64,000 bases of DNA from Desulfatiglandales bacterium (GTDB lineage Bacteria; Desulfobacterota; DSM-4660; Desulfatiglandales; HGW-15). The DNA lies in assembly GCA_963667015.2 (NCBI GenBank), contig CAXXJJ010000001.1:1312001-1376000 (forward strand), read 5' to 3'. Both the position numbers and the translations under genes were made by a program. The notes under the pieces are model-generated. The model was not told where the DNA came from. It ran no database searches and saw only the letters and a list, made by a program, of their open reading frames with translations. Below, one piece after another: positions 1-37,035 of the stretch. How positions within the stretch are numbered: position 1 is the first letter of the stretch; the number at the start of each line of letters is the position of its first letter.

Positions 1-738
1 TTGATTTGTCTTTGATATCCTGTCCTGGTAGGCCTCCAGGTTCATCTGACACATGGGGCATACAGTTACTATAGCATCTGCTCCATAGGCGCCTTTGAGT
101 ATTGCCCCTGTAAGTTCAAGGCCAACCTCTGTCTTGGTGTTCATATGGGAAGCTCCGCAGCACTTTCCTCCCATTTTCCAGGAATGAATATCCGCCCCGG
201 TTGCCCTGATAAGCGGCTCCATTGAAACGGGCGCCTCGGGATCATCAAAGATTGCATAAGGACGAAGGCACTGGCATCCGTAGTAGGGCGCGATACGAAG
301 ACCGGAGAGGGATTTTTTTAGCCGGTTTTGAATGATTTTGGGACCCAGATCCTTTGACATTATATCCAGAAGGTGACGCACATGTACCTTTCCCCTCAGC
401 TCGAGCTGATTTTCCTTCAATACCTCGTTAAGTTTGATTTTTAGTTCCGGATCATTTTTGGCCTTTATTTCCACCTTCTTCAGGTTCAGGTAACAGGCGC
501 TGCATGGCACGAGAATGTCTTTATCTCCATCCATTTTTTCCGCCAGAGCGATATTTCTTGCGGGAAGAGCAAGAGAAAGCAATGCACTTACCGATTCCGC
601 GGCAGTGGCTCCGCAGCAGGTCCAGTCATCCAGTTCTGTTAAATTAACATCAATTTCCTTAAAGAAATTTTTTGTGGATGTATTGTATTCCAATGCTGTC
701 CCTTCAAGTGAGCAGCCGGGATAATAGAAATAATTCAT
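1..738 (-). CDS. hdrB: Heterodisulfide reductase subunit B-like (CCG domains), 3' end runs off the window
   Basis: Not in the ORF track because its stop lies outside the window. Manual translation from ATG 738 gives MNYFYYPGCSLEGTALEY...WTCCGA...VPCSACY...PYYGCQ. The start overlaps the hdrC stop (ATGA). Confidence 0.9.
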   Translation of the reverse strand, partial: MNYFYYPGCSLEGTALEYNTSTKNFFKEIDVNLTELDDWTCCGATAAESVSALLSLALPARNIALAEKMDGDKDILVPCSACYLNLKKVEIKAKNDPELKIKLNEVLKENQLELRGKVHVRHLLDIMSKDLGPKIIQNRLKKSLSGLRIAPYYGCQCLRPYAIFDDPEAPVSMEPLIRATGADIHSWKMGGKCCGASHMNTKTEVGLELTGAILKGAYGADAIVTVCPMCQMNLEAYQDRISKTNQ

Positions 739-1307
739 GATCTTTCCTCCAACTCCTCGACCTTTTTGAATATTGCTTCAAGCGGATTAGGATTTCTGGA
801 TGGAATTTCTATTGATACCTTCCCTTTACGAAACAGGTTAATACCTAATGGTGTGAATTTAAGCGGTAGAAAGGGATTTTTCATGGACAGAAAATAAAGG
901 GACATGAACTCCATTTCATGAACCCTGCCATGTCGGCGAACACTGTCCATGAAGCTTTTATAAAATCGAACACTTTTTTTGTATGGCTTCATGTTTTTCT
1001 TGGAAGCAATCTGTTTGAGGGCACTCATTGCTTCTGTAATGGGTAATCCCCGAGGACATCTCAGGGTACAATAGTAACAGGCTGAACAGAGAGTAAATGT
1101 TCTGCTCTTAAAAATCTCTTCTTTTTGATCTGCCAGAACCATACGCCATAACTTTCGTGGAGTAATATCCATGGCAAAGGAGTTGGGGCATGAACCTGTA
1201 CATGTCCCGCATTGAATGCAGGGCCGGATCATTTCTCTGACAGGCCCCAATACACTGGATGAAGAACCGGTCTGATTTTCGTCTACTTTTTCTGCACGTG
1301 GACTCAT
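735..1307 (-). CDS. hdrC: Heterodisulfide reductase subunit C-like 2x[4Fe-4S] protein
   Basis: CIQCGTCTGSCP and CSACYYCTLRCPRG motifs; lies directly upstream of hdrB. Confidence 0.9.
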   Translation of the reverse strand: MSPRAEKVDENQTGSSSSVLGPVREMIRPCIQCGTCTGSCPNSFAMDITPRKLWRMVLADQKEEIFKSRTFTLCSACYYCTLRCPRGLPITEAMSALKQIASKKNMKPYKKSVRFYKSFMDSVRRHGRVHEMEFMSLYFLSMKNPFLPLKFTPLGINLFRKGKVSIEIPSRNPNPLEAIFKKVEELEERS

Positions 1308-1327: not shown

Positions 1328-4300
1328 TTAACTTAGAGCCGCATCAATAATATCAAACATCTGCTCTTCCAGAAAGCCTTCCACGACAGACGCGCTGTTT
1401 GGACAGACTGCAGCGCAGGATCCGCATCCCTGACACATCACGGGATTTATTACGATCTTTTCAAGGTCATGGTCCAGTCTGCGCGCTCCGTATGGACATG
1501 CATCAATACATCGTTCACACATGCTGCACAGGCTGTGGCGGACGGTTGCAACAATCTTCCCCGACGGCAGATACTCCTGTGTGAGTATCCTTAATGATTT
1601 TTGAGCAGCTGCCTCTGCCATGGCAACGGTTTCGTCAATTGAGCCAGGGGAAAGGGTGAGACCGCAGGCAAAAACACCCTCTTTGATTGAATCGACCGGT
1701 CTCCATTTGGTCTCAGCCTCCCTAAAAAAACCATCCTGGTCGACTGAGGCGCCAAAATATTCAGCCAGGTCCTTATCCAGGGTTGGCAAAATTCCCGTTG
1801 AGAGCACTACAAGGTCTGCGTCGATCCGTATATTTTGCCCCAGAATAGGATCATACCCGTTAACCTGAAGATTTTTTTCATCTGTTCCCACACCATCAGC
1901 TATTACAACCTCGGGTTTGCCATCCACATTGTACTGTATAAAAATAATACCGGCCTTACGGGCTCTGGTATAATAGGTCTCCATAAATCCATAGGACATC
2001 ATATCTCGATACAGGATATAGATCGCTATATCCGGATTTTTGTCCTTTAATTCCAGTGCATGTTTCAGTGCGGAGCTGCAGCAAACCCTGCTGCAGTAAT
2101 TCCTTGGCCCCTCCCTTGAATCTACACATTGTATCATTACAACGGAATCGAGTTTGTCGATATCAATACTGTTGTTATCTATTCCCTGTGCCAGTTCTTT
2201 CTGGGAGATAATTGCTTCACTCTTATCATAGTCATAGGAAGAGGTGGATGCCTCCATTCCTCCGGTCGCAAGTATTACCACACCATGCTCCAGGGATCTT
2301 AATTCTCCCTCTTTATCCTCTATAGTAGTGTAAAAATGTCCTACTTCCCCATGAGATGCCACGATCCTCGATGAAAGAGAAACCTGAATCAAAGGGTTCT
2401 TTTCTATCTTCGACACGGTATCATCCAGAAAGATTTTAACAGAATGACCTTCAAGCGTGTTTTTCAGCCATGATAGATTTCCCCCGAGTTTATCCTCCTT
2501 TTCGATCAGGGTTACCTCAAACCCGTGTTCTGCTATTCCAAGTGCCGCAGCCATTCCGGCTATACCGCCTCCTACCACCAGTGCTTTCTGATCTATTTTA
2601 ACAGCAGGTGCCTGGGACGGGTTAACACGTTTTATTCTGGCGATACCTGTTAAAAGGGCATTTTCCACATCGCCTATATATCTCTCAGGGTCTGTTTCCA
2701 TTTCTGTCCTGATCACGGGGTACAGGGATGACCAGATATCAACAACATCCATACAGTATGGATTAATACCGGATTCCTGACATAGTTCCTTTATCTTGCG
2801 GTTGTATACATATGGCAGACACGCCCCTATCAAAACCCTGTTGGGTTTATGACTTTCTACAAGTTCTTTTAGTCTATTAATACCCGTAGCAGTGCATGTT
2901 CTATCGATATATTCAATTGTGTCGACCGATGGATCACTTTTAAGGCGGGAGATGAGGTCGTCACTTTGTTTAAGGAGATCAGAAAAGATATGGCCGCAGG
3001 TACAAATCGCGATCATAATTCTGGGTAATTCCCGGCTGACATCTGTTTGTTCAGGAACCTTTGCCCGGACAGGGGCCAGGCTGCCGCCTGCAGAATGAAT
3101 AACCCGGGAAGCGGACAGGGCCGCGGCTGATGCCTGTATGACTGACTCATGAATATCTTTCAGCCCGGAATAGGATCCTCCGATTATGATACCTTCATGA
3201 CTGGTTCTGGTCATTGAAAAGGGCTCTGTCTGGAAGTATCCCCATGGATTAAGAGGGATATCAAGATTTTTTGATAAATCTCTGGTCCCTGGCGCAGGCC
3301 GCTGTCCTACAGCCAGGACAGCCATATCAAAATATTCCTCATTGAGTGCGCCTGACAAATCAAAGTAACACAGGTTTAGATTCCCATTTTCTTCATCCGG
3401 ATCTGCGGATACAATCGAATGAACCCGGCCTCTTTCAAAACGTACTCCATGGGTTTTTTCAGCCTCATCACGGTAACGTTGATAGGACTTTCCAAATGTA
3501 CGCATGTCCATATAAAAAATAGCTGTTTCTATTAGGCCACCGGACTTTTTCTTTGCCATAAGTGCCTCCTTTATGGAGTACATACAGCATATGTTTGAGC
3601 AAAAGTCCGAGTCAGTCTGTAAGTCACGTGAGCCCACACACTGGATCCATGCGATCTTATTAATCGGCCTGCCGGTGTGAGGATGTATCAGCTTTCCTTC
3701 AACAGGTCCGGTCCCGCTCAAAATTCTTTCAAACTCAAGGCTTGTAACAACATTGGGAAGATTTTTATAGCCAAAGGGGTTTTTCCCATCAGTTGGATCA
3801 AAATAAGAGGTGCCCCCGCAGAATATCACGGATCCGAACTCCATTTGAGGTCCTTTGGATGCCTCGACATCCTCATATATTTTTAGAATTTTAGGTATGA
3901 GTATCGCAGTGTCAAAGGGCTTGATCAGGTAGTCCAGGGCACCCGTTTTCATTGCCTCCACTGCGGTTTCTACTGTGGCGTATGCGGTCATCATAACCAC
4001 CTGCAGGTCCGGCAGCATCTCTTTTGCCTTCTGGAGTACCTCGACACCATCCATTCCAGGCATTTTTATATCCAGAAGCATTAACTGGAAGGGCTGTTGT
4101 ACTAGTTTTTCCAGGGCCTCAGAGCCTGAGCCAGCGGTATCAACTGCGAAACCTGTTTCATCATCAAGCCATGCCTTGAGGGAATCCCGGATAATGGACT
4201 CATCATCCACTACAAGAATCCTGAAATTTTTTCTTTCCTGTTCTGACAGTCGAACAGCACCTGTAGGACAGACCTCTTCGCAGGCACCGCAGCGGGTACA

Positions 4301-4792
4301 GGCAGATACGTCGATCTGATATGGATTGGGAATTGCATGGGGAACCGGCAGATAGATCGCCTTTCTGGATGTGAGTCCGGCATTGAATACGTCCTCCACA
4401 TCAACAGGACAGACTTCGGTGCACCTGCCGCATCCAATGCACAAGCCTGGATCTACCCAGTGCGGTTTCTGTTTCAGCCTTACCTGGAAATGGCCCGGTT
4501 CTCCCTCCAGGTCAGAGAGTTCAGTGGAGAGCAGGATCTCAATATTTTCATGAAAGAGCCCTTTTCGCAGACAATATTGAGATGAGGCATCCCTGTTAAC
4601 CAGGGGCAGCATTTTACACATGCCGCACTGATTTGTCGGAAACTGGTAGTCAAGCTGACTCAGGACTCCGCCCAGATGGGGTGATCGGTCAATCAAGGTT
4701 ACTCCATAGCCTGTTTCAGCCAGATCGAGAGCAGCACGTATACCGCTGATACCTGCGCCTACCACCAGGGCCTTACCGATCTTTTTTTTCAT
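1328..4792 (-). CDS. hdrA: Large tandem HdrA-like FAD/FeS flavoprotein with an inserted receiver (REC) domain
   Basis: Two GxGxxG FAD motifs, two QCV-x-SR...CSxxCC cluster motifs and ferredoxin motifs. Residues ~190-307 form a full REC domain. Confidence 0.9.
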   Translation of the reverse strand: MKKKIGKALVVGAGISGIRAALDLAETGYGVTLIDRSPHLGGVLSQLDYQFPTNQCGMCKMLPLVNRDASSQYCLRKGLFHENIEILLSTELSDLEGEPGHFQVRLKQKPHWVDPGLCIGCGRCTEVCPVDVEDVFNAGLTSRKAIYLPVPHAIPNPYQIDVSACTRCGACEEVCPTGAVRLSEQERKNFRILVVDDESIIRDSLKAWLDDETGFAVDTAGSGSEALEKLVQQPFQLMLLDIKMPGMDGVEVLQKAKEMLPDLQVVMMTAYATVETAVEAMKTGALDYLIKPFDTAILIPKILKIYEDVEASKGPQMEFGSVIFCGGTSYFDPTDGKNPFGYKNLPNVVTSLEFERILSGTGPVEGKLIHPHTGRPINKIAWIQCVGSRDLQTDSDFCSNICCMYSIKEALMAKKKSGGLIETAIFYMDMRTFGKSYQRYRDEAEKTHGVRFERGRVHSIVSADPDEENGNLNLCYFDLSGALNEEYFDMAVLAVGQRPAPGTRDLSKNLDIPLNPWGYFQTEPFSMTRTSHEGIIIGGSYSGLKDIHESVIQASAAALSASRVIHSAGGSLAPVRAKVPEQTDVSRELPRIMIAICTCGHIFSDLLKQSDDLISRLKSDPSVDTIEYIDRTCTATGINRLKELVESHKPNRVLIGACLPYVYNRKIKELCQESGINPYCMDVVDIWSSLYPVIRTEMETDPERYIGDVENALLTGIARIKRVNPSQAPAVKIDQKALVVGGGIAGMAAALGIAEHGFEVTLIEKEDKLGGNLSWLKNTLEGHSVKIFLDDTVSKIEKNPLIQVSLSSRIVASHGEVGHFYTTIEDKEGELRSLEHGVVILATGGMEASTSSYDYDKSEAIISQKELAQGIDNNSIDIDKLDSVVMIQCVDSREGPRNYCSRVCCSSALKHALELKDKNPDIAIYILYRDMMSYGFMETYYTRARKAGIIFIQYNVDGKPEVVIADGVGTDEKNLQVNGYDPILGQNIRIDADLVVLSTGILPTLDKDLAEYFGASVDQDGFFREAETKWRPVDSIKEGVFACGLTLSPGSIDETVAMAEAAAQKSLRILTQEYLPSGKIVATVRHSLCSMCERCIDACPYGARRLDHDLEKIVINPVMCQGCGSCAAVCPNSASVVEGFLEEQMFDIIDAALS

Positions 4793-4809: not shown

Positions 4810-6117
4810 TTAGACTCCATAAATTGCAACATCCGCCAGGTCAGGCCCCAGGTACTCGCGTTCATTTTCTCCGAGTATACCCAGAGAAAGACAGATCAAT
4901 GTCCATAGATGTACTGTATGGTATTTTGCTTCATAATGTTCAGCAAGGTCATGGATCTGTGCATGACAATTATGGCACGCTGCAATACAGTAATCGGCCT
5001 TTGTTGCCAGAATCTGTTTCAGTTTTATCTCTCCATATTTTCTACGGGCATCAACAAAACCAGATTGCAGAAATCCTCCTCCACCTCCACAGCAGTAATT
5101 ATTTGATTTGTTAGGAGTCATATCAACAAAATTCTCTTCGCCGACAACCGATTTAACAACAAACCGCAGATCATCGGCAATGGGGTCTCCATAACTTTTA
5201 CGCACGATCTGGCATGGGTCCTGTACCGTGAACTTGATCTTCAGGTCTTTGTTCCAGTCAGAGTTGACCTTGAGTTTGCCTTCGCGGATCCATTTTGCGT
5301 AATATTCATAGATATTTTTTACGACAAAGTTGTGTTTGATGTTGAATTTTTTCAGTCCTGCCAGGACTGAGTAGGTGACATGGCCTCATTCGGTATTGAG
5401 GAAGACCTTGCATCCGAGTTCATCGGCCTTGTTTGCCGAGGTCTGAGTAATGTGTTTCCATGCCTCATCGTCCGAAAGAAACATGCAGTAGTTTTCACCG
5501 GCCCAACCCTTGCTTCCATAGGTCCAGTCAGCACCAACCAGATGAAGAATCTTCCAGAGCGGGACCATTTCATCCGGTTCAGTAACGGGTTCCCTTGAAT
5601 TCTGGTTTACAAAGAAATAGGCACCTTTCTTATCAATGGGGGCCTCCATGTCTTTAAATTCAGGCTGGGCCTCCCTGTATTCCTCCAGCACATCTTCAAC
5701 AACAAAGGTAAAATCTTCGGGCGCTGTGCCCATGGCGCTGCAGCTGTCATTTCTCAGGGCCATATCACAGGAGCCCAAGATACCTTTTGGTCTTTCTTCC
5801 CGGGGCCAGGTGGCCCTGGCATTATAAACAAGCTGCGGGATATCTATTCGCATGGGGCAGACATAGATACAACGCTGGCACATGGAGCACATCCAGACCC
5901 ATGGTGTGCTTGTAATCACATCATCCATCCCAAGGGCAGCCATACGAAGAAATTTTCTGGGGTCCATTCCTTCCAGACCCGACGCAGGACAACCCGAAGA
6001 GCAGGCACCGCATGTCAGGCACAGGTTAAGATTGCCCCCTTCAGGCAGGAGATCTTTCACCTTATCCATAAAAATGCCTTGTTTCTTTTTCCCAAGTTTG
6101 ACTACATCCGCTGACAT
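4810..6117 (-). CDS. HdrD/GlpC-like Fe-S oxidoreductase (2x[4Fe-4S] plus CCG domains), selenocysteine-containing, 435 aa
   Basis: ORFs 5386..6117 and 4810..5205 are one reading frame through TGA at 5386-5388: NTE-U-GHVTYSVLAG...VQDPCQIVRKS. The TGA occupies the Cys position of the ECGH motif. Confidence 0.88.
5352..5370 (-). promoter_or_regulatory. Bacterial SECIS-like hairpin
   Basis: Perfect stem TCAGTCCT/AGGACTGA with a GGC loop, starting 15 nt 3' of the in-frame UGA. Confidence 0.8.
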
Positions 6118-6140: not shown

Positions 6141-7283
6141 TCAGGAGATCCCTACAACCTCGTCAAATTCGTCTTCACGAAATTCAGATAAGGGTGGCAT
6201 ATCATCAAGGCTTTTACCTGCCTCATATCCAAATCCCTTTTGGGTTTTAAAGGCTATGGTACGAAAGAGTTCCATAACCGGTATATCGTTAGGGCAGGCA
6301 TTAGAGCATTGGCCGCAGCCTATACAGGCAGTGCTCATGTGAGCCAGCCTGGTGATATGGTAAAATGTAGTATCTGTGGGCATCTTGATCTGGCCCTTTC
6401 TTGCTGCCCATCTAAGATATTGTGAAGGTTCGTGGTTAAAGACATCGGTTACGAACACACACTCTTTGCAGTAACAGACAGGGCAGGCAACCCGGCAGTT
6501 ATAGCAGTTTACACAGTTGGCGAGATACCCTGTAAGTTTTCCAAGGTTGTTTGTTGCCTCGCTGGTTTCAGCAAACATATTATCCCGGTGGCTTATTCGC
6601 TCTGAAATCAGGGTATCTATGGCCTCTTTGCGTCCTGAAGGTTCAGCCGCTTCGGAAAGATTGAGTTTGCCCAATATAGCTTCACCCGCAGGTGTTTCTG
6701 GCTGAATCAGGATATGATCCTTTATATCCATCCCGTAAAGCCCTATGAGGATATCGGCACTGTTCGGCACGGGATATTCACAGGACATGCATGCCGTTGC
6801 AAGTTTTATGTCACCAAATGATGCACCCTTGCCCGAAAGGACGCTTTCATAAAAGCGTTGTGTGGAGCCCTTTTCATCCTCGGATACAAACCGGAAAAAA
6901 TCCGTGTTTTTATATGCCCCCAGACAATCGATCCCTACTATTATAATCTCATCCGTACGGCCCTGTTTAAGCTTTACAAGCTCTATAAAGGCCCTTATCT
7001 CACATGGACGTAAAACTACCGCTATCCTGCCGCCCGCGGGTTTGCGGGTAAGCCTGGATACAATCTTGGCTGCGTTCATGGGGAAGGCAGGAGACAGGGG
7101 ATCAACACCATCCAGTTGTTCCGGATCGCTGATCAGAACCGGCATTACCATATTCTTCATCGGAAGAAGTTTGGGAACCAGGATCGCGCTGATCTCATCC
7201 AGCTCCAGGATAGATCTAAAAAAACTCTGAAGAGATTCTAAAAGTTCCGTGTCTTTTGTATCAACTTTTAATGCGTTTAACAT
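6141..7283 (-). CDS. FdhB/FrhB-like Fe-S protein (F420-hydrogenase/dehydrogenase beta family)
   Basis: LRPCE, GIDC, CVNCYNCRVACPVCYCKEC and CIGCGQCSNACP motifs. Confidence 0.75.
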   Translation of the reverse strand: MLNALKVDTKDTELLESLQSFFRSILELDEISAILVPKLLPMKNMVMPVLISDPEQLDGVDPLSPAFPMNAAKIVSRLTRKPAGGRIAVVLRPCEIRAFIELVKLKQGRTDEIIIVGIDCLGAYKNTDFFRFVSEDEKGSTQRFYESVLSGKGASFGDIKLATACMSCEYPVPNSADILIGLYGMDIKDHILIQPETPAGEAILGKLNLSEAAEPSGRKEAIDTLISERISHRDNMFAETSEATNNLGKLTGYLANCVNCYNCRVACPVCYCKECVFVTDVFNHEPSQYLRWAARKGQIKMPTDTTFYHITRLAHMSTACIGCGQCSNACPNDIPVMELFRTIAFKTQKGFGYEAGKSLDDMPPLSEFREDEFDEVVGIS

Positions 7284-7320: not shown

Positions 7321-7743
7321 CTATATAACCATCTTCAGTTTGGCGGCGTTTGGTCCCAGGGCCTTTACCTGTGTGACCAGTTCCCGCATAATCTCGGCAA
7401 ACTGGATCCCGTCACTGGCACCGATCCATGTGAGCCTGAGCCGCTCCGGTTCAAAGCCAAACTGGGGAAGGATCTCTTTTAAAAGCTTTATCCTCCTGCG
7501 GGCCTTGTAGTTGCCATTTATGTAATGACAGTCACCCGGGTGGCACCCACTGACCAAAACGCCGTCAGCTCCTTCCAGAAATGCCTTGATTACATATTGC
7601 GGATCAACCATCCCCGTGCACATGACCCGAATCAGCCTTATGTTTTTGGGATAGGTCAATCTGGATGTCCCGGCCAGATCAGCCGCGGTGTACGTACACC
7701 AGTTGCAGACAAAGGCGACAATACTCGGTTCAAAATTTTCCAT
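7321..7743 (-). CDS. mvhD: MvhD/FlpD [2Fe-2S] subunit (Cys form)
   Basis: FVCNWCTYTAAD, MCTGMVDP and GCHPGDCHY motifs. Confidence 0.92.
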   Translation of the reverse strand: MENFEPSIVAFVCNWCTYTAADLAGTSRLTYPKNIRLIRVMCTGMVDPQYVIKAFLEGADGVLVSGCHPGDCHYINGNYKARRRIKLLKEILPQFGFEPERLRLTWIGASDGIQFAEIMRELVTQVKALGPNAAKLKMVI

Positions 7744-7804: not shown

Positions 7805-9607
7805 TTATATACCCACAGAATTCAATGCATCCATGATCCCTTCAAACTCTGCGAAAACCTGTTTCTTATTAAAGTGTTTAACCTGTGCGGCACCGCTCGG
7901 GCAAAAACCCGAACAGCTTCCACACCCTTTGCATACAGCCTCATTGATTACCGATACACCCCTGAATTCATCAAATTCAATTGCAGAATAGGGGCACAGG
8001 CCGATACATACCTGACATCCGGAGCAGATATCAGGATCAATATATGAAATTGTGGACGGGACCTGTACAATTCCCCGTGTGGCAAGGGAAAGGGCCTTTG
8101 ATGCGGCCCCTGATGCCTGGGCCACGGTGTCCGGTATATCTTTGGGGGACTGACAGGCACCTGCTAGAAATACGCCGTCTGTAGCCGTATTCAGGGGCCC
8201 CAGCTTGGGATGTTCTTCAAGGAAAAACCCGTCTGCACCGATATTTACGCCAAAGACTCTGCCTACATCAACTGCATTCTCCCTGGCCTCCATGGCAACA
8301 CAGAGGATCACCATATCGACCGGCACACGTAAAGGGGCACCAAGCAGCGTATCCTCCGCAATGGCAATAAGCTTACCCTCCTCTTCAGGCACCACCGCCT
8401 GATCGGTAATTTCCGCCACCTTTCCTCTTATAAAATTAGTCCCTTCCTTCTGACACCTCTCGTAAAACTCTTCATAGCCCTTGCCGAAACAGCGCATATC
8501 AATATAAAAATCAAAAACCTCTGTGTCGTGCCCGATTTTTTCTTTTATAAGATGGGTATATTTCAGGGCATACATGCAGCAGACCCTCGAACAGTATTCA
8601 TGATAGTTCTTGTCACGGCTCCCAATACAGTGAAGGAGGGCGACACTTTTCGGTTTCCGGTTAAATTCACCGTTTTCATCCCTGATAAGAATCTGCCCGC
8701 CTGTGGGGCCGGTGGCATTACTTAATCGTTCAAATTCGAGGCTGGTATAAACATTTGGATATTCCCCATACCCGAATTGCTTTATGGGTGTGGGGTCCAG
8801 GACATCGTAACCTGTTGCCAGGATAATAGAACCGACCTTTACCTCAATAATCTCTTCTTCCTGATCAAAATCTATTGCGCCTGCCTCGCAGACATCCCGG
8901 CATATGCCGCAGTTTCCGGTATTAACATGGACACACGCCTCGGAATCGATCACCGCGGCAAGGGGAACTGCCTGGGGAAAGGGTATGTATATGGGTTTTC
9001 TCTCTTTAAGCTCCTCATCCCATTCCGAAAGAAGAGGCCTGGGTTCTCGTTTTGCTATCGCCAGGATATCGATGCATCCTGTAGGACAAACCGACTCACA
9101 TGCACCGCAGACCTGGCATACATCAGTGTTTATCTGGAAAGGGGTTTCAACCCTCATATCCGCCCCTCTACCGGCCAGGCTTATGGCGCTTACGCCCATT
9201 CTCTCTTCACACATACGGACACACAGGCCGCAGAGGATACAGGCACTGTCCCCGGGTCTGAATCTGGGTGTTTCAATGCCATATTTTTCGGCAAGCCCTT
9301 TTACAACAGGCACATCCGGACATCTGGCGAGAAGCAGTTCAACAATCAGTTTTCGTCCTTCGTGCACTGTGTCACTGTCAGTAGTTACCTCCATCCCTTC
9401 CCATATGGGGTAGTTGCATGCAGTAACAAAACGGATTTTGCGGCCATCGAAAAGTTCAACAGTACAAAGACGGCACATGCCTGCCGGTTCCAGCGCTTTA
9501 TGGTGACACAGGGTCGGGATCTGCACGCCGTATTTTTCCGCGACCTGAAGGATAGTCTGTCCTTCTTCTCCCTGGACTTCCTGGCCGTTAAGTTTGAAAT
9601 TGATCAT
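7805..9607 (-). CDS. Fusion of a NuoG/HydA-like N-terminal [2Fe-2S]/[4Fe-4S] region with the C-terminal part of HdrA
   Basis: IPTLC...CRLC...TAC at the N-terminus, then PFPQAVP, ILATGY, HCIGSRD, CSRVCCMY and LAGACQSPKDI HdrA motifs. Confidence 0.85.
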   Translation of the reverse strand: MINFKLNGQEVQGEEGQTILQVAEKYGVQIPTLCHHKALEPAGMCRLCTVELFDGRKIRFVTACNYPIWEGMEVTTDSDTVHEGRKLIVELLLARCPDVPVVKGLAEKYGIETPRFRPGDSACILCGLCVRMCEERMGVSAISLAGRGADMRVETPFQINTDVCQVCGACESVCPTGCIDILAIAKREPRPLLSEWDEELKERKPIYIPFPQAVPLAAVIDSEACVHVNTGNCGICRDVCEAGAIDFDQEEEIIEVKVGSIILATGYDVLDPTPIKQFGYGEYPNVYTSLEFERLSNATGPTGGQILIRDENGEFNRKPKSVALLHCIGSRDKNYHEYCSRVCCMYALKYTHLIKEKIGHDTEVFDFYIDMRCFGKGYEEFYERCQKEGTNFIRGKVAEITDQAVVPEEEGKLIAIAEDTLLGAPLRVPVDMVILCVAMEARENAVDVGRVFGVNIGADGFFLEEHPKLGPLNTATDGVFLAGACQSPKDIPDTVAQASGAASKALSLATRGIVQVPSTISYIDPDICSGCQVCIGLCPYSAIEFDEFRGVSVINEAVCKGCGSCSGFCPSGAAQVKHFNKKQVFAEFEGIMDALNSVGI

Positions 9608-9619
9608 GGGCTATACCTT

Positions 9620-11473
9620 TTATTTGATAACAATTGCGTTAAACCTGCAGTTTTCGTAACAGATGCCGCACTTAATACATTTGCTCTGATCCAGTTTATG
9701 GGGATTTTTCTTTTCACCTGTAATTGCTCCCTGTGGACATTGTTTTGCGCATAATGAACATCCTGTGCATGCCTTTTCATCAATCTTGTAATGGAAAAGG
9801 TTTTTACAGACACCGGCAGGACACTTTTTGTCCCTGATGTGTGCTTCATACTCATCACGGAAATACTTTATGGTCGTCAACACCGGATTGGGTGCAGAGG
9901 TTCCCAGTCCGCACAGGGAAAATTTCCTGATCATGCCGGCCAGCTCTTCAAGGAGTTCAATATCCCCTTCCTTGCCGTTGCCTTCACAGATGTTATTGAG
10001 TATCTCCAGCGATCTCTTGATGCCCTCCCTGCAGGGGTTGCACTGACCACAGGATTCATCCTTCAGGAAATCCAGAAAATAGCGGGCCACATCAACCATG
10101 CAGGTGTCCTGGTCCATGACGATCATACCGCCGGAACCCATAATGGACCCCACCTTTGCCAGCTCATCAAAGTCCACGCCAAGGTCCAGGTACTCCTCCG
10201 GGATGCAGCCACCTGAAGGTCCCCCCGTCTGAACCGCCTTAAATCTCTTTTTTTTGGGGATGCCTCCTCCAATATCATAGATAATTGTTCGGAGGGTTGT
10301 GCCCATTGGGACTTCCACAAGACCTGTATTGACAACCTTTCCCACGAGGGAGAAAATCTTGGTGCCCTTACTGTTTTCCGTGCCTGTGGAAGCGAACCAG
10401 TCTGCTCCTTTGTTGATAATGATTGGAACATTGGCCCAGGTTTCCACATTGTTCAGATTGGAAGGGCCCTGCCGGAACCCTTTTTCAACCGTGTGGATGT
10501 ATTTTGCCCTGGGTCTGCCCGGTTGTCCCTCCAGAGAGGCCATCAGGGCTGTTGATTCGCCGCATACAAAGGCCCCGCCTCCGCGGCTGATACGGATATC
10601 AAAATCAAAACCCGAGCCTAGGATATTCTTTCCCAGGAGGCCCAGTTCATTTGCTTTCCGGAGGGCAATGTTCAGGTTTTTTACTGCCAGAGGATATTCA
10701 TGCCGCACGTATACATATCCCTCGTGGGAACCTATGGCTATGGCGCCTATGATCATGCCCTCGATGATACTGTGAGGATTTCCCTCCAGAAGACTTCGGT
10801 CCATGTAGGCGCCCGGATCTCCTTCGTCAGCATTACAGATCACGTATCTGTTTCCTTTATGACTGCGGCATGACTCCCACTTGATACCTGTGGGAAATCC
10901 TCCGCCGCCGCGCCCCCTCAACCCGGATTTTTTTACCTGGTCGATGATATCCCCGGGTGTCATATCCAGCAGTGCTTTTTCAAGTGCCCTGTAACCGCCT
11001 GCCCCGATATAGTCCTCTATGCTGGTGGGGTCTATCATTCCGTTGTTTCCGAAAACCATCCTCTGCTGCAGTTTATAAAAGGGGATATCCCGCTCCCGGG
11101 TGATCTTCTCTTTAGTAGCCGGATCTTTGAAAACAAGGCTCTCGACCAGCTTCCCGTTTTTAATTGTTTTTTCAACGATGTCGGGGATGTGTTTCTCCTG
11201 GAGCTGCGGATAAAAAATGCCTTCAGGGTGGATGACCATGATCGGCCCTTTTTCGCAGAAACCGTGGCAACCGGTCAGCTTGACTTCTACCCTGTCCTGG
11301 AGACCTTGCCTGCCAAGTTCTTCCATGAGTGCCTTATGAACCTTTGATGTACCGTAAGCCGCACAGCCGGAACCGGCACAGAGTGAAACAAGCTTTTTAC
11401 TGCTATCAGGACTCTTTTTTTGAAACGATTTTCTCAGTTCCGAAAGCGCTTCTCGATTGTCCAGTCGTATCAT
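9620..11473 (-). CDS. nuoF: NuoF/HydB-like NADH-binding FMN subunit
   Basis: [38 protein letters not shown] and a C-terminal 2x[4Fe-4S] region. Confidence 0.9.
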
Positions 11474-11505
11474 GTAATTATAAAACCTCCGTTGCCCCCG
11501 GTCAG

Positions 11506-12033
11506 TTAAGGGATATCTTTCTCGTGATCTTCAATAACTTTTAGAGCCCTGGAACGGTCGAGACCGCCGTAAGTTTCCTGATTTACCGTAATAACAGGTC
11601 CGGAGGCGCAGCACCCGACACAACGAACCGCCTCCAGGGAAAAGAGACTATCGTTGGTTGTTTGCCCCTCTCTGATCTTCAACTTTTCCCGGAGCGCGTC
11701 CATGATCCTGTCCGCGCCTCTAACATGGCAGGCGGTTCCTGTACATACGTTGATAATGTATTTTCCCCGCGGCTCCAGGCTGATGGTTTTATAAAATGTC
11801 GCCACACTGTAGATCAGGCTTTTTTTGATACCTAACCTGTCTTCCAGAACAGGAATAACCTCGGGGGGGACATAGTTATATATATCGCTGATGTCCTGCA
11901 TGATCATAAGCAGTGACTCATGATCCGCGTTATACCTGTCAATAATTGCATCTATCTTCTGCAGATCAATGTGAACCTTTTGTTTTGCTGCATTTACTTC
12001 CTTATTAACTGTATTATCCTGTGCCTCAACCAT
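11506..12033 (-). CDS. nuoE: NuoE/HydC-like [2Fe-2S] subunit
   Basis: [15 protein letters not shown] and RCVGCC motifs. Confidence 0.9.
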
Positions 12034-12034
12034 T

Positions 12035-12868
12035 TTATTCTCCTTTACCGATCCCGGTCTGTTCCATCGCCTTCTCTTCAGGAGTATAGAGCCTGTACCG
12101 GACAGGGCAGGCCTTTGTGCACTCTCCGCAACCCGTGCACTTGTTCACATCCACATAACGCTTCTTTTTTTTGATCTTTACAGTGTAGTTTCCTATGTAC
12201 CCTGAGACCTCAACAACTTCGCAGTAGGTCATAAGCTTAATGTTGGGATGCTGACCCACGTCAACCATTTTGGGTGTTCCGATACAGGCCGCACAATCAA
12301 GCGTGGGAAAGGTTTTATCAAACTGAAGCATATGACCGCCAATTGTAGGGTCCTTTTCAACCAGGTACACCTTGTGGCCTGAACTGCCGATATCCAGTGC
12401 CGCCTGCATGCCTGCGATGCCTCCTCCCACCACCAGGACATCGGGATGAACATTCACTTCACGGGTTTCAAGGCTGTGATGGTAATTGACACGATTTATG
12501 GCCCCGGCCGCCAGGGTCTTGGCCTTCCGGGTTGCTTCATCCTCATCCTCGGTTACCCATGAAACCTGTTCACGTACAGAGGCCATCTGGAACATATAGG
12601 GGTTAAGTCCGGCACGTTCACATGCGCCCCGGAATGTCTTTTCGTGCAGTCTCGGAGAACAGGATGCCACCACCACCCGGTTTAAACCGTACTCCTTTAT
12701 ATCCTTTTCTATCATTTCCTGTCCTGGATCCGAACACATGAACCGGTAATCTCTGCTTACCACGACATTTGGAAGTTTTCGGGCAAAGTCTGCGACTTCT
12801 TTTACCCTCACCTTATAAGAGATATTTATTCCACAGTGGCAAATATAGAAGCCTATTTTGATCGTCAT
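12035..12868 (-). CDS. N-terminal half of HdrA as a separate gene
   Basis: YICHCGINI, ASCSPRLHE, GGGIAG and KTFPTLDCAAC motifs. Ends at a TAA just after the first ferredoxin motif. Confidence 0.88.
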   Translation of the reverse strand: MTIKIGFYICHCGINISYKVRVKEVADFARKLPNVVVSRDYRFMCSDPGQEMIEKDIKEYGLNRVVVASCSPRLHEKTFRGACERAGLNPYMFQMASVREQVSWVTEDEDEATRKAKTLAAGAINRVNYHHSLETREVNVHPDVLVVGGGIAGMQAALDIGSSGHKVYLVEKDPTIGGHMLQFDKTFPTLDCAACIGTPKMVDVGQHPNIKLMTYCEVVEVSGYIGNYTVKIKKKKRYVDVNKCTGCGECTKACPVRYRLYTPEEKAMEQTGIGKGE

Positions 12869-13627: not shown

Positions 13628-15016
13628 ATGATTGATCAGGAATTAAGCAGTTACTGGAAAAAGGTAGTCGATACCATAAAAGATGGAGTGATGATTGTAG
13701 ATAAAGGCGGAATCATCGTTTCCGTTAACAAGGCTATGGAAGAAATCACCGGTTATTCCAAAGACGAGATGTTAGGTAAATCCTGTGACATATTGAAGTG
13801 TAATATCTTTGAACATGCCCGTTTAAATAAGGGTGATCACTGGTGTGTTTTATTTAAAACCGGGGTCATGAATATGAGAAGGTGCACCTTTATTAACAGG
13901 GATGGTGAGTTCATACATGTTTTAAAAAACGCAACCCTTCTCCATGATTCGGAAGGTCAGGTTATTGGAGCAGTCGAAACAGTTACCGACATCAGTGAGA
14001 TTCTGGAAAAAGATTCCCAGATAGCCGCATTCCGCCAGGAGTTGCGGGCAGAAAACGGCTTTCATGGGATTTTGGGTGTTTCAGGGGCCATGCTGAGGGT
14101 ATTTGATTTGATTACGAATGCAGCAGAATCACAGGCACCCGTAATCATTTTCGGTGAGAGTGGAACAGGCAAGGACCTTGTTGCCAGGGCAATACATGAA
14201 ACGGGCTTACGCAAAACAAAACCCTATATAAAGGTAAATTGTGCAGCCTTAAACGAAGCCCTTCTGGAAAGTGAGATTTTCGGACATGTTAAAGGTGCAT
14301 TTACTGGGGCATATAAGGACAGGATAGGCAGGTTTGAGGCAGCCCAGAGCGGCAGTATTTTCCTTGACGAGATTGGTGACCTGCCTGTTTCAACACAGGT
14401 TAAACTGCTTCGGGTTTTAGAGGATAAGGTGATTGAGCGTGTTGGTGATAACGCCCCTGTTCATATTGATGTAAGGTTGATATCAGCTACCAACAGAGAT
14501 CTGAAAAGGCTTGTAGACGATGGTTATTTCCGCGAAGACCTCTTCTATAGAATAAATGTTATACCAATTAATATACCCCCCCTTAGAGATCGTGTCGATG
14601 ATATTCCTATTCTGGCAGAATCTTTCTTCAGAAGAATACAGCTTAAAACAGAAAAAAAGATCCAGGGTATCAGTGATGATGCCATGAGACTGTTAATGGA
14701 ATATTCATGGCCGGGGAATGTAAGAGAGCTTAGAAACGCCTTTGAGTTCGCCTTTGTAACCTGCCAGGATGCCTTAATCCAGCCTTACCATTTCCCCCTC
14801 AATATCTACAGTCCGAAAAAGAGATTTTATAAGGCATCTCCTGGTAATTCTGTTGATAAAAAAGATTTAAAAAAACGGGAGCTTATTAAAGCCCTTGTAG
14901 ACTCGGAAGGCAATCAGTCAAAGGCGGCAGAGCTTCTAGGTGTTACCAGGGTAACGATCTGGAATAGAATGAAAAAATATAATATTAAGTTTAACCGGGG
15001 ACGGTTGGAATATTGA
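13628..15016 (+). CDS. PAS-domain sigma54-dependent enhancer-binding protein (Fis-type HTH)
   Basis: Cys-containing PAS domain, GESGTGKD, GAFTGA, WPGNVREL and a C-terminal HTH. Confidence 0.93.
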   Translation: MIDQELSSYWKKVVDTIKDGVMIVDKGGIIVSVNKAMEEITGYSKDEMLGKSCDILKCNIFEHARLNKGDHWCVLFKTGVMNMRRCTFINRDGEFIHVLKNATLLHDSEGQVIGAVETVTDISEILEKDSQIAAFRQELRAENGFHGILGVSGAMLRVFDLITNAAESQAPVIIFGESGTGKDLVARAIHETGLRKTKPYIKVNCAALNEALLESEIFGHVKGAFTGAYKDRIGRFEAAQSGSIFLDEIGDLPVSTQVKLLRVLEDKVIERVGDNAPVHIDVRLISATNRDLKRLVDDGYFREDLFYRINVIPINIPPLRDRVDDIPILAESFFRRIQLKTEKKIQGISDDAMRLLMEYSWPGNVRELRNAFEFAFVTCQDALIQPYHFPLNIYSPKKRFYKASPGNSVDKKDLKKRELIKALVDSEGNQSKAAELLGVTRVTIWNRMKKYNIKFNRGRLEY

Positions 15017-15017
15017 T

Positions 15018-16589
15018 CTAAGCCTGTGTTATTGGCAACATTATTTTAAAAACAGTTCCTCCATTCAGGGGGCTTTCAGCCTTTATCATTCCTTTATGAC
15101 GTTCTAAAATACCATAAACGGTCGACAGGCCAAGGCCAACCCCATAGCCTTCTTCCTTGGTGGTAAAAAAGGGTTCAAAGATATAGGGAAGGTCTTCTTC
15201 AGAGATTCCATTCCCGGTATCTCTAACAATGATCCTGATTGATTTTTCGGATGGATCGTGTTCCGCAGAAAGAGTGAGGGTTCCTCCATCAGGCATTGCA
15301 TCAATTGCATTGAAAATAAGGTTGATGATACATTGCTCCAACTGGTTAAAGTCGCCTTCGATTGAGGGAATGGCCGGCTGAATATCGGTCTCAAGCTTAA
15401 TATTTTGCAGCACAAGCTTATGATGGCTCAGGACAACACATTTATTAATTAGATCTCCTACAGATATTTCTTCAAAGGCGATCGGTGATTTACGGGAAAA
15501 GGTAAGCAGGTTTGAAACAATTTTTGAACAGCGGTCTGTTTCATTTTCAACAACCTCCAGGTACTCACTGAATTTTTCTCTTTGATCTTCTGCGATCGGC
15601 CCGCGGTTAACAATGCGTATCATCAGCCGGAGATAATTAAGAATACCTGAAAGTGGATTGTTAATTTCATGAACAACACTGGCCGCCAGTCTCCCCATGG
15701 ACATCATCTTATCCTGATGAAGGATGCGGGCCTGGTTGGAGAGGTCATACTCAAGTTTGCGGAGTTCCCTGAGATCCCTGAAGAAAAAGACAGAACCTTC
15801 GATTTTATCATGATCAAAAAAACTGGTCCCTGACACCTGCACCGGGATTTTTCTGCCGGAACTGTCCAGAAGAGACGTCTCATAAAAATTAAGACGATTG
15901 GCGCCGCCGAACTTTTCACCTTCAAGAGCGGCTTTGAGCGAGATTTCATCGTCCCGGGTCAGGAATTGGGAAAGCGTCATTTTATGCAGGACATCCTCTT
16001 TGGTGCAGGAGAGCATATGTTCCATGCTTTTATTAAAGGTCGCTATTTCACCTTTCTCATTGTGGGCGAGAATTCCATCCATGGAGCTTTCTATAAGGTT
16101 CTTTTGAAAGGCAAATGTTTTTATAAGTTCCTGATGGGTCTCGGCCTTTTCTTTTTCCAGGAGCGCAGTATATTCTGCGAGCTGTTTCCTGGCCAGGTAG
16201 CGTTCTTTAGCCCTGTTTACAGCAAGATGTAATTCTTTCGTATTGATGGGCTTGGTGATAAAATCCGAGGCATCAAGTTGAAGGGCGCGTATGGCTATAT
16301 CGATTTCGCCGAAGGCGGTCGCCACAATAACTTCGATCTCCGGAGAGTTCTTTTTTAAGGATTCTAAAACCTGAAGCCCGTCCATAACGGGCATTCGAAT
16401 GTCTGTAATGACAATCTGGGGAGATTTTTCTACGCAAACCCTTAAGCCGCTCGCACCATCTCGAGCAACAGAGATATGATGGGAGAGGTCCTTCAATGCC
16501 AGGGAAAGGATATCCAGTATATCCTCCTCATCATCTATGATTACAATTTCCCATTCAGTGACTGCAGTCATACCGGATTGCCCGAACAT
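15018..16589 (-). CDS. Hybrid histidine kinase (REC-PAS-HisKA-HATPase)
   Basis: IIDDE/ITDIRMP receiver, HEINNPL H-box, FEPFFTTK and GVGLGL motifs. Confidence 0.93.
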   Translation of the reverse strand: MFGQSGMTAVTEWEIVIIDDEEDILDILSLALKDLSHHISVARDGASGLRVCVEKSPQIVITDIRMPVMDGLQVLESLKKNSPEIEVIVATAFGEIDIAIRALQLDASDFITKPINTKELHLAVNRAKERYLARKQLAEYTALLEKEKAETHQELIKTFAFQKNLIESSMDGILAHNEKGEIATFNKSMEHMLSCTKEDVLHKMTLSQFLTRDDEISLKAALEGEKFGGANRLNFYETSLLDSSGRKIPVQVSGTSFFDHDKIEGSVFFFRDLRELRKLEYDLSNQARILHQDKMMSMGRLAASVVHEINNPLSGILNYLRLMIRIVNRGPIAEDQREKFSEYLEVVENETDRCSKIVSNLLTFSRKSPIAFEEISVGDLINKCVVLSHHKLVLQNIKLETDIQPAIPSIEGDFNQLEQCIINLIFNAIDAMPDGGTLTLSAEHDPSEKSIRIIVRDTGNGISEEDLPYIFEPFFTTKEEGYGVGLGLSTVYGILERHKGMIKAESPLNGGTVFKIMLPITQA

Positions 16590-16638: not shown

Positions 16639-16989
16639 CTATCCGATTGCATCTTTTACTATTCCAAGAAGCTTTTCAGGATCAAAGGGCTTGTTAACAT
16701 AGCCAACGGCGTTCCTGATGGCGTGATCGCCATCGATCCCCGTCACAACAATCACAGGAGTATCTTTTACTTCCTCATGCTTTCTGAGCTTCCGGTAGAA
16801 TCTTGGCCCCCACTCTTCAGGCATTTCAAGATCGAGTGTTATCAAGTCAGGTTTTTCCCTGAGAAGAATCTCTAATCCTTTAACACCGTTTTCAGCGGAG
16901 CAGGTCTCATAACCGTTTTCCTGAAAGAGATCTGTGAGATAGTCTACAATAATGGGATCATCATCAATAACCAAGATTTTTTTAGCCAT
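16639..16989 (-). CDS. Single-domain response regulator (resembles the DVU0259 type)
   Basis: VIDDD, TLDLEMP, VVTG and KPF motifs; no output domain. Confidence 0.88.
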   Translation of the reverse strand: MAKKILVIDDDPIIVDYLTDLFQENGYETCSAENGVKGLEILLREKPDLITLDLEMPEEWGPRFYRKLRKHEEVKDTPVIVVTGIDGDHAIRNAVGYVNKPFDPEKLLGIVKDAIG

Positions 16990-18823: not shown

Positions 18824-19996
18824 TTAATGTGACTCTTTATAGTCCGGATGTTCATAGAAAATCGGCATCCAGCTGACAATGAATTTAAAAACAAGCAGGC
18901 CGCATGTGAGAAGAAAAATGGAAATTCCAATCTCCATCCAGTGCGGGAAATATCTTTCGCTTGAAGGAAGGTGCCAGTTAAAGGCGATCAGGCATATATT
19001 GAGTCTGTTGACCATAATACCCAGCACGGTCCAGCCGGAAGTTAATCTTATCAGTTTAAGGTTCTTAGCCCTTACTCCAACCGCATAGAGAAAGCATGGT
19101 AATGCTACGAATCCCAGAAGTTCCACCAGGTACCACATTCCATAGGAAGTTGCGAGGTAATGCCAGTTATTGTCCGCGGCAATACCAATAACTTTAACAG
19201 CAAAATAGCCCGCCAGCACCCATGATGCAGCCTTGCCGAATCCAAGCGCAACCTGGTCTTTTTCCTTCATATGAGCTTCATCCATTTTATGGGAATAATA
19301 GTGATGGGACAGAGTGCCTTCGAATATTACCATTGATAGACCGGCGATTATGGCTGTAACAAAGAAATATACCGGCAGATATGAAGAATACCAAAGGGGA
19401 TGAAGCTTGGAAGGTGCGATTAAAAACAGTGCCCCGAGTGAAGACTGATGCAGGGTTGAAAGTATAACACCCAAAATTGTCAGGACCAGCGTAAGTTTAT
19501 GTATCAGGTTTCTTAATTTTTTCAGGCCAAGCCACTCAAGAGCCGCAGGTGAAAATTCAAGAAACAAAACAGTCAGGTAGAGAGCCACACATATTGCCAC
19601 TTCAAAAAGCACAGAGGTAGTTCCCTGCTGTACTACAAGCGGATAAGGCAGTCTCCATGGTCGGCCGACATCGTAGTTCAGGGCGACCACAACAAGTGCA
19701 TAACCTAAAAACCCGGTAAGGATAGCCGGTCTGACCGCAGAATGGTATTTTTTCATTCCGAAGATATAGACTGCCGCAGAGGTTACAAAGCCTCCGGCAG
19801 CAAGAGCGACGCCAGAGAGCAGATCGAAGCCTATCCATATTCCCCAGGGATTATAATCCGAGAGATTCGATACAGCACCCAGTCCCCCCATGAAGCGGAG
19901 TCCGGTCAGTACAAGGCCAATAAGGACAATAAATCCTGCAATGACATTAAATGGCGTCATTAATGATTTAACGGTGAAAGTACCGCTTTTTGACAT
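18824..19996 (-). CDS. hmcC: HmcC, NrfD/PsrC-family membrane subunit
   Basis: PWGIWIGFD, DVGRPWR and STLHQSSLG motifs; many TM segments. Confidence 0.88.
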   Translation of the reverse strand: MSKSGTFTVKSLMTPFNVIAGFIVLIGLVLTGLRFMGGLGAVSNLSDYNPWGIWIGFDLLSGVALAAGGFVTSAAVYIFGMKKYHSAVRPAILTGFLGYALVVVALNYDVGRPWRLPYPLVVQQGTTSVLFEVAICVALYLTVLFLEFSPAALEWLGLKKLRNLIHKLTLVLTILGVILSTLHQSSLGALFLIAPSKLHPLWYSSYLPVYFFVTAIIAGLSMVIFEGTLSHHYYSHKMDEAHMKEKDQVALGFGKAASWVLAGYFAVKVIGIAADNNWHYLATSYGMWYLVELLGFVALPCFLYAVGVRAKNLKLIRLTSGWTVLGIMVNRLNICLIAFNWHLPSSERYFPHWMEIGISIFLLTCGLLVFKFIVSWMPIFYEHPDYKESH

Positions 19997-20041
19997 AAGA
20001 GGTCCTCCTAAAGAATGTTGCTATTCGTCTTTGCCTGACTC

Positions 20042-21010
20042 TTAATTTGAAGATTCATTTTCCCGGGCGGCTTTAGCTGCTTCTTCCAGGGCTTTTTTCA
20101 CTTCTTTTTGTATTGCTGTTTCTTTTTCTTTTTCAGCTATTTTATCCTTACGTTTGTTTATGGCATATATTCCTGTAAGTAATACCGGCCAGAGAGATAC
20201 TACAATGGGTACAGCGCTCAGCGCTCCGTATGTCAGCTCAGGAGCAGGTGTTATGCCAAGGTCCTCTCTCATGCCTGTTTCCTTAAAAGGAACTCCTGAC
20301 AGATAAAGCCAGCTTGTTCCACCCATCTCATGTTCACCGTAAATATGGTCCTGGTACCGATCGGGATATTTCTCTATCCTTTTACGGGCAATTTTGATGA
20401 GATCATCACGCTTTCCGAACTTCAAAGCACCTGTAGGGCATGATTCAACACAGCCCGGAAGTTTATTCTCTTTTATCCTGTCATGGCACATCGTACATTT
20501 TCTGACCCTGGGAGTAAGCGGTTCATTATATTCATATGTAGGAATTTCAAAGGGACATGCAATAATACAGTACCTGCAGCCGACGCACACGGACGGATCA
20601 TATGTAACTGCACCCTCTTTGGTCTTTTTAAACGCCTTTACGAAGCATACTGATGCGCATGCTGGTTCAAGACAGTGGTTGCACTGGTTTTTTCTAAAAA
20701 TTGGAGAGCCATCGTTTTTTTTGCCGTCATACCTGTTAACAACGGTAAATGCCTCAGTTGTAGTTCTTCTTTTCTTATCCAGTACAGTAAGATCATTAAA
20801 GGGTTTTTCAGGCTTTGGCAATTCATTGACGATGTTGCAGCCTTCTTCGCAACTCCTGCACCCTATACAAAGCACTGTATCATGTAAAACGCCATAGCTT
20901 TCGGGATAACCTTTAAAATGTTTTTTTGCAGCATGGGCAGACTTACTTATTGCAGTAGAACTCCCTGCAGCGCCAATCCAACCTAGAAATTTCCTGCGTG
21001 ATATGGACAT
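20042..21010 (-). CDS. hmcB: HmcB periplasmic 4x[4Fe-4S] protein
   Basis: Tat signal SRRKFL, four Cys clusters and a C-terminal TM anchor. Confidence 0.88.
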
Positions 21011-21018
21011 AAATTACC

Positions 21019-36741: not shown

Positions 36742-37035
36742 TTAGTCATAATCAGGCACTTCAAACTCAAGTTTGGTTATGCAGTATTTTTCCCATTTGG
36801 GAGTCACATCATCAAAAAGAATGTTCTCTTCCTTGTAAACGTCATCTGTCACAACATAATTTTCCTGGAGATATACGATAGATTCATCGGTAAGTGTTCG
36901 TGGTTCTTCTACCTCTTTTCCATCAATTTCTAATTTTTCTTTCCGTGCATTTTGTGTATTCTCTTTCCATTTTCGATATTTTCTCATATCGCCTAAGTGA
37001 TATGCCTTGCAATATTTGCTCATAACTTTAATCAT
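36742..37035 (-). CDS. Small hypothetical protein coupled to the thioesterase gene
   Basis: RBS and overlap with the thioesterase stop; KYCKAY...YLQENYVVTD...ILFDDVTPKW. Confidence 0.75.
   Translation of the reverse strand: MIKVMSKYCKAYHLGDMRKYRKWKENTQNARKEKLEIDGKEVEEPRTLTDESIVYLQENYVVTDDVYKEENILFDDVTPKWEKYCITKLEFEVPDYD

Follow-up and report, generated by a model that had tools for sequence, protein, structure and literature searches.

A receiver domain inside a fused double HdrA suggests an Hdr enzyme switched directly by phosphorylation in Desulfatiglandales

Introduction

The closest sequence and fold matches to the protein described here are the HdrA subunits of methanogens, from the HdrABC-MvhAGD, Elp-Hdr and Fdh-Hdr-Fmd complexes (PDB 5ODC, 8RVY, 8RWN and 7BKD), which are single-module homodimers with a linker of 6 residues at the site where our protein carries a receiver domain. 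In solved HdrA complexes the inserted ferredoxin domain is described as the low-potential electron exit, at which FmdF, MvhB, BamC or ferredoxin dock, and conformational gating is assigned to a mobile arm made up of MvhD together with HdrA's N-terminal and C-terminal domains (PMC12350162; 10.64898/2026.04.10.717634). A GltD insert near the inserted ferredoxin domain of type III HdrA has been proposed to block the access of ferredoxin (PMC12054007). Switching of electron-bifurcating complexes on a short time scale is little studied in anaerobes, and in the literature that we searched we met no description of such a complex under direct two-component control.

Response regulators with an enzymatic output include CheB and PleD. 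Receiver-enzyme fusions are a known class and are taken to put enzyme activity under environmental control (PMC5847659). A fusion with HdrA is already visible in database names, as Sfum_0821 of Syntrophobacter fumaroxidans is called a receiver-modulated FAD-dependent oxidoreductase in the supplement of a study that gives its mean log iBAQ as 6.6 with sulfate, 5.2 with fumarate and 4.5-4.7 with methanogens (PMC5947623); the receiver goes unmentioned in the main text of that paper. In the literature searched we found no publication describing HdrA::REC; Appel et al. 2021 and the censuses of bacterial regulators by Galperin may mention it.

The sequence analysed here suggests an Hdr enzyme that is switched directly by phosphorylation. 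An initial annotation of this DNA had arrived at the same interpretation, which is partly supported by the architecture, conservation, co-occurrence and co-loss described below.

The fused HdrA and its receiver domain

The gene hdrA::REC lies near the start of the window, by which we mean the whole 64,000-nucleotide stretch of DNA that was analysed, and its parts are as follows.

1328..4792, minus strand: hdrA::REC, a fused double HdrA (type II, BamE-like); unbroken open reading frame, 1154 amino acids
4463..4792, minus strand: N-terminal part of the first flavin (TrxR-like) domain, residues 1-110; its alignment to 5ODC starts at residue 145 of the latter
4241..4462, minus strand: inserted 2x[4Fe-4S] ferredoxin domain, residues 111-184; Pfam, 5ODC alignment
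3845..4240, minus strand: inserted segment with the receiver, residues 185-316; Pfam, 5ODC alignment, conservation, AlphaFold model
4070..4072, minus strand: codon of D241, the predicted phospho-acceptor; Asp in 116 of 116 aligned proteins
3083..3844, minus strand: first flavin domain, C-terminal part, residues 317-570; 5ODC alignment, conservation
2618..3031, minus strand: HdrA N-terminal-like domain, residues 588-725; aligns to 5ODC 2-140
1568..2590, minus strand: second flavin domain, residues 735-1075; conservation of key sites
1331..1555, minus strand: C-terminal 2x[4Fe-4S] ferredoxin domain; Pfam, 5ODC alignment

The protein is confirmed as an HdrA, as the initial annotation had it, although its fused double form, like the second kinase pair of the locus, had gone unnoticed there. 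Its best sequence match is the HdrA of PDB 5ODC (E 3e-115), and by its domain order, drawn from Pfam and the 5ODC alignment (an FAD domain into which a ferredoxin domain is inserted, followed by an N-terminal-like cluster domain, a second FAD domain and a C-terminal ferredoxin domain), it is a type II or BamE-like fused HdrA. The AlphaFold model, built on an alignment of 116 rows (the query, 45 loci and 70 of the 119 best matches), has a mean pLDDT of 87.7 and a pTM of 0.89, and the HdrA core around the receiver compares with 8RWN at a TM-score of 0.93 on the target. In the first flavin domain both cysteines of C56-x-x-C59 are kept in 116 of 116 aligned proteins, as are E355 and K408, which are E356 and K409 of 5ODC as counted from the alignment, and the C-terminal part of this domain holds cluster cysteines 385, 398, 402 and 403. 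Four invariant cysteines (597, 599, 633 and 658) are found in the N-terminal-like domain. The second FAD domain retains K910, but the Glu seen in 101 of 116 relatives is replaced in the present protein by Ala868, which leaves the pair of Lys and Glu that is an archaeal type II trait incomplete. That the first flavin domain, which bears the insert, would be the bifurcating one is assumed only from E355 and K408.

The claim that a receiver domain is inserted within HdrA is borne out by a match to Pfam Response_reg (PF00072) at residues 192-299 (E 7e-29, with a score of 100.7 bits where the cut-off is 30.2), and the residues expected of a receiver are all at the positions first given for them, namely D196, D197, D241, T269 and K291. 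On this basis the receiver is confirmed as complete, with an acidic pocket, a phospho-acceptor Asp, Thr and Lys. The HdrA sequence does resume after it: 5ODC 145-312 aligns with residues 7-184 and 5ODC 319-469 with residues 317-472, and 132 residues (185-316) stand for the 6-residue linker of 5ODC, where the inserted ferredoxin domain ends on its C-terminal side. The receiver core at 190-311 is flanked by short linkers of nearly constant length, and AlphaFold predicts a receiver fold of five strands and five helices at 191-311, with block pLDDT values of 76-93. The ferredoxin domain and MvhD had both been seen as a gate in the initial annotation; this stands for MvhD, which is part of the published gating arm, but not for the inserted ferredoxin domain, which is described as the exit. 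Because that domain is the low-potential exit, we place the receiver at the exit and not at the gate, and since the insert lies at its end, the receiver would hang on the exit of a module able to bifurcate.

The remaining genes of the locus are listed here.

1..738, minus strand: hdrB-like gene, continuing past the window edge; Pfam/NCBIfam
735..1307, minus strand: hdrC-like gene; best NCBIfam match TIGR03290, below cut-off
4810..6117, minus strand: hdrD-like gene, 435 amino acids with the TGA at 5386-5388 as selenocysteine; open with TGA read as U
6141..7283, minus strand: FdhB/FlxB-like Fe-S protein; weak FrhB_FdhB_C and Fer4 matches, conserved upstream neighbour
7321..7743, minus strand: mvhD; FlpD, E 8e-56
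7805..12868, minus strand: second HdrA, split into two halves that enclose nuoE, nuoF and a NuoG-like N-terminus; Pfam/NCBIfam
13628..15016, plus strand: PAS-sigma54 activator without a receiver domain; Pfam
15018..16589, minus strand: REC-PAS-HisKA-HATPase hybrid kinase (RPHK-A); Pfam
16639..16989, minus strand: single-domain regulator of the DVU0259 (DivK-like) family; NF045717 above cut-off
G000 C1:1310208-1311842, outside the window: HK1, a HAMP-PAS-PAS-HisKA kinase, directly after hdrB
G000 C1:1309082-1310218, outside the window: RHK2, a REC-kinase hybrid, with HK1 after hdrB

Here mvhD, the FdhB-like gene, hdrA::REC, hdrC and hdrB all stand in one operon, and Pfam and NCBIfam uphold both earlier domain assignments for the hybrid kinase and the single-domain regulator. 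The second HdrA is split within its inserted ferredoxin domain, an arrangement with nuoEF and NuoG-like genes that also occurs in G130, G132 and L006. In most relatives (24 of the 33 loci that were counted) this place is taken by HdrL, which has a GltD insert; as NADH input HdrL is absent from the present locus, which has the split HdrA and nuoEFG instead. The inserted ferredoxin domain accommodates three different inserts in all: the GltD of HdrL, the NuoEFG split and the receiver. No BamB (tungsten AOR family) or BamC was found among the open reading frames of window 1-25 kb or of the 18 kb beyond hdrB. The hdrD-like gene at 4810..6117 probably encodes a selenoprotein; its orthologue in G134 has Cys at the TGA site, and a hairpin lies soon 3' of the TGA.

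Elsewhere in the window, hmcA/B/C-like genes (multiheme cytochrome, Fe-S protein and NrfD family) lie at 18824-22572, with no further hmc genes between this set and a lytic transglycosylase. A region of low GC at 37028-49188 and 56297-63374 contains fragments of a cluster for a peptide synthetase (two condensation domains, a TubC docking domain, a thioesterase, a sulfotransferase, a methyltransferase and an AMP-binding enzyme), together with transposases and an ABC exporter of the C39-peptidase kind that is accompanied by HlyD and TolC-like genes; its long stretches without open reading frames of 150 amino acids indicate that it may be decayed.

Conservation and spread of the fusion

An assembly chimera is ruled out, as 119 homologues cover the region, 39 of the 174 genomes of the order match the query across both junctions, and contigs span the junctions. 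This was one of the objections foreseen in the initial annotation; contigs from three studies, one of them possibly the source of the present assembly, cover both junctions in one piece. The best 120 matches to residues 100-400, which comprise the query and a further 119 proteins with identities of 66-90%, all have full coverage with PF00072, a protein of Desulfonema magnum among them. The fusion is present in 24 of 54 genomes of the family, in 2 of the genus's 10 other species and, with the best 8 candidates per genome scored, in at least 9 of 401 genomes of a phylum sample. In a search of genome contigs, 13 of 80 loci were fusions and the others mostly ordinary receivers. A recent foreign insertion was likewise rejected, given that the GC content of the insert (0.47) lies between those of its flanks (0.52 and 0.46) and that the HdrA receivers are one clade. 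At L003 9701-13500 the fusion gene and its neighbours are split into several frames, probably through assembly errors in that record.

D196, D197, D241, T269 and K291 are invariant in 116 of 116 aligned proteins, so that the conservation of D241 among homologous fusions, on which the earlier interpretation had been staked, is complete in this set. The five residues are intact in 56 of 58 loci, the remainder being one cut by a contig end and one decayed (L146, in G093), and the active site is kept in proteins down to 44% overall identity. Among 46 diverse rows, mean pairwise identity is 69% for the receiver, 56% for the adjoining FAD part and 55% for the second FAD part, and the alpha4-beta5 stretch (residues 270-293) is nearly invariant. 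As NtrC-type receivers are conserved in any case, high receiver identity is no proof of an interface with HdrA. The HdrA receivers form a single clade (FastTree support 0.95), the sister of which consists of sigma-54 regulators (support 0.91).

Related arrangements were met at other loci. Usp-REC-Usp proteins, encoded at L015 10775-12091 and L162 13891-15390, have a receiver that nests inside the HdrA receiver clade, and their genes adjoin hdrB and an RPHK-A kinase. At L002 3143-11403 an HdrL paralogue, the frame of which apparently begins past an upstream stop, sits in a metF-metV-mvhD cluster with single-domain receivers on its flanks, and in G132 (L183) metV-metF-hdrA-like genes lie between the kinase and the operon.

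Candidate kinases and natural losses of the receiver

The hybrid kinase RPHK-A, which the initial annotation had named as a possible conserved neighbour, is indeed a companion of the fusion. It occurs in 34 of the 39 fusion genomes but in just 2 of the 135 others, counts that come from related genomes and from score cut-offs which, for RPHK-A and HK1 alike, were set after the gaps were seen; for RPHK-A the gap lies between E 1e-81 and 1e-72. It is also found in 7 of 7 fusion genomes from outside the order. Among the 34 it lies on the same contig and within 20 kb in 14, at 47 kb in 1 and on other contigs in the rest. Fusion and RPHK-A are both present in 3 of the 11 species in this genus, in 2 of 9 in g79, in 1 of 3 in g65, in 1 of 3 in g28 and in 1 of 2 in g10, and the remaining species of all five genera have neither. 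RPHK-A was not found in four fusion genomes with an intact receiver (G046, G076, G150 and G158), which are fragmented (86-97% complete, in 220-790 contigs), and it occurs without the fusion in two (G075 and G120), a partial match in G146 being left uncounted.

The RPHK-A clade (FastTree support 0.99) nests with RPHK-B (0.98), and in 7 of 7 cases the sister sigma-54 regulators have an RPHK-B, the sister kinase, next to them; the kinase tree and the receiver tree mirror each other. These patterns make RPHK-A (15018-16589) the best candidate for the cognate kinase of D241, and we consider it likely that it phosphorylates this residue. A tie of RPHK-A to the hmc genes only was dropped given its co-occurrence with the fusion across genomes. 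The DVU0259-type regulator, a rival substrate of RPHK-A, is a poorer match than the fusion as the reason for its distribution, being present in at least 10 of 39 fusion genomes and at least 5 of 135 others among the best 26 candidates per genome at E 1e-36, a strict cut-off for a protein of 116 amino acids.

HK1 is present in 36 of 39 fusion genomes and 21 of 135 others. Where 6.5 kb or more of downstream sequence was available, in 32 distinct loci (the duplicate L160 having been dropped), HK1 lies downstream in 21 and RHK2 in 18. RHK2 and RPHK-A have receivers that group in a clade of their own (support 0.997), which fits both as substrates of HK1 and suggests that HK1 may act on the two of them. 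A CxxCH motif stands between two predicted membrane helices in 18 of 27 HK1 sequences. The HK1 of this genome (L001 16208-17842) is without this membrane and heme-c (CxxCH) sensor part, as is that of G132, and the missing part was found nowhere else in this genome.

RPHK-A follows the whole operon lineage, which leaves G134 and G093 as the only two genomes in which receiver and operon come apart. G134, of the same genus and 95% complete, has the same operon with an HdrA that is about 80% identical and from which residues 185-306 are cleanly missing, in frame. This HdrA nests among receiver-bearing proteins, and a tree grouping those without it is rejected (AU p 0.00016, with 17 chosen HdrA rows and a quick tree), which argues that the deletion is secondary. 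RPHK-A is absent from G134, where all 98 candidates were scored and the best reached 39%, and HK1 has no match there, the contig stopping just after hdrB. In G093 (97% complete, 9% contamination) the receiver has decayed, and RPHK-A and HK1 are both missing while an RPHK-B pair is retained. Loss or decay of the receiver thus coincides with absence of RPHK-A, in two cases, which are few.

Discussion

We propose that the operon product would be an NADH-fed complex of the HdrABC type, in which electrons would pass from NADH through the NuoEFG-split HdrA (HdrL in relatives), MvhD and the FdhB-like protein to the first flavin of HdrA::REC. This flavin would bifurcate them, to HdrCB and HdrD at high potential and to the inserted ferredoxin domain at low potential. 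The receiver would be a working phospho-switch anchored at the end of that ferredoxin domain, with D241 phosphorylated by RPHK-A, itself probably governed, by way of its own receiver, by the upstream sensor HK1. Phosphorylation may shift the receiver against the ferredoxin domain and so alter the access of ferredoxin or transfer from the shuttle cluster, and the output of the complex could be raised or lowered without new protein synthesis. Phosphotransfer, bifurcation and the regulatory effect with its direction are what we infer here rather than observe. We put the probability that phosphorylation of D241 controls the low-potential electron output of HdrA::REC at roughly 60%. Phosphorylation of CheB relieves a block, and by this analogy we lean slightly, at near even odds, towards a phosphorylation that releases one. 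The proposal made for the GltD insert provides a steric precedent for a receiver acting at the low-potential exit. A wider reading, to which we would give a little less than an even chance, is that the low-potential branch of a bifurcating enzyme is opened or shut by Asp phosphorylation through a dedicated cascade, from a heme-c sensor kinase to a hybrid kinase to the receiver inside HdrA, across Desulfobacterota including cultured species.

Several other readings have to be weighed against control of the electron exit. The receiver might be phosphorylated but signal outward, as a phosphate sink or redox reporter that feeds back on the kinases and on the sigma-54 regulators of the operon. Several of these loci do have sister sigma-54 regulators within them or next to them; RPHK-A and this genome's RPHK-B are mostly alike in the residues after the phospho-histidine, which makes cross-talk plausible; the HdrA receiver clade also occurs between two Usp domains, in L015 and L162; and the receiver-less enzyme of G134 appears functional. 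A sink, however, could do without a set place inside the protein, yet both the point of insertion and the lengths of the linkers are conserved, RPHK-B-like kinases are common in genomes lacking the fusion (112 of all 174 genomes at E 1e-55), and G093 keeps its RPHK-B pair although the receiver has decayed, so that we regard outward signalling as unlikely. We give a similarly low chance to HK1 or RHK2 being the kinase of a real switch, a reading compatible with the regulatory part of our own. The pair follows the operon in the 21 (HK1) and 18 (RHK2) of 32 loci given above, also where hdrCB are lacking, and the 36 fusion genomes with HK1 include G150 and G158, in which RPHK-A was not found. Yet HK1 also occurs in the 21 of 135 non-fusion genomes, the residues that follow its phospho-histidine are unlike those in the kinases that pair with the sister receivers, and the separate clade of the RHK2 and RPHK-A receivers fits these as its substrates.

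It is less likely still that phosphorylation controls assembly, partner choice or turnover, for example by dimerisation of the receiver, and not internal electron transfer. The alpha4-beta5 face is the usual dimer face of NtrC-type receivers, and it is this stretch, 270-293, that is nearly invariant here. The solved Hdr complexes are also dimers (PMC12350162; 10.64898/2026.04.10.717634). The stretch is, however, alike in the free sigma-54 regulators and the Usp fusions, and its near-invariance may therefore be inherited. Least probable, to the point of being hard to credit, is a tolerated passenger without current function at an insertion-prone loop: the same ferredoxin region accepts GltD (in HdrL) and the NuoEFG split in this operon, and two lineages have lost the receiver or let it decay, but the five active-site residues persist down to 44% overall identity and receiver decay goes with absence of the kinase.

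Should phosphorylation of D241 control the low-potential output, sulfate reducers and syntrophs would be able to reroute NADH and ferredoxin flux through phosphorylation, and the receiver, by way of BeF3- or D241 variants, would be a built-in handle for trapping states at the electron exit of HdrA. Cultured carriers are Desulfonema magnum, by sequence, and Syntrophobacter fumaroxidans, by annotation; together with a named kinase candidate and a receiver-less orthologue of about 80% identity, they make the idea directly testable.

Comparison with described systems places the enzyme between known electron-bifurcating complexes and known receiver fusions. BamE of the class II benzoyl-CoA reductase of Geobacter metallireducens is likewise described as a fused HdrA dimer with its bifurcating flavin in the first TrxR domain, with the Lys and Cys-x-x-Cys, an exit through the inserted ferredoxin domain, and partners of the MvhD, HdrD and NuoEFG kinds, a comparison made by description; unlike hdrA::REC, it has no receiver mentioned in what that description offers, and its second flavin site has Gln where hdrA::REC has Lys (10.64898/2026.04.10.717634). 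The tungsten AOR-type gene of the BamE system has no counterpart in window 1-25 kb. Type II HdrA of methane-metabolising archaea also has two thioredoxin-reductase domains per chain with the K409/E356 signature, and also clusters with HdrBC, MvhD and FdhB, but keeps Lys and Glu in its second FAD domain, where hdrA::REC has Ala at the Glu site; the words 'receiver' and 'regulator' are absent from the main text of this survey of 28 archaeal classes (PMC12054007). The HdrABC/HdrL complex of Syntrophobacter fumaroxidans (Sfum_0819-0824) has the same gene set as this operon, save that here the split HdrA and nuoEFG replace HdrL and an hdrD is added (PMC5947623), and judged by its name and gene set it very probably belongs to the same family. 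Lastly, in the enzymatic-output regulators, such as REC-thioredoxin reductase and REC-pyruvate phosphate dikinase, receiver and enzyme also share one chain, in a census that does not contain the word 'heterodisulfide' (PMC5847659); the receiver of hdrA::REC differs from these in being internal and in residing in a multi-cluster flavoprotein of the electron-bifurcation type.
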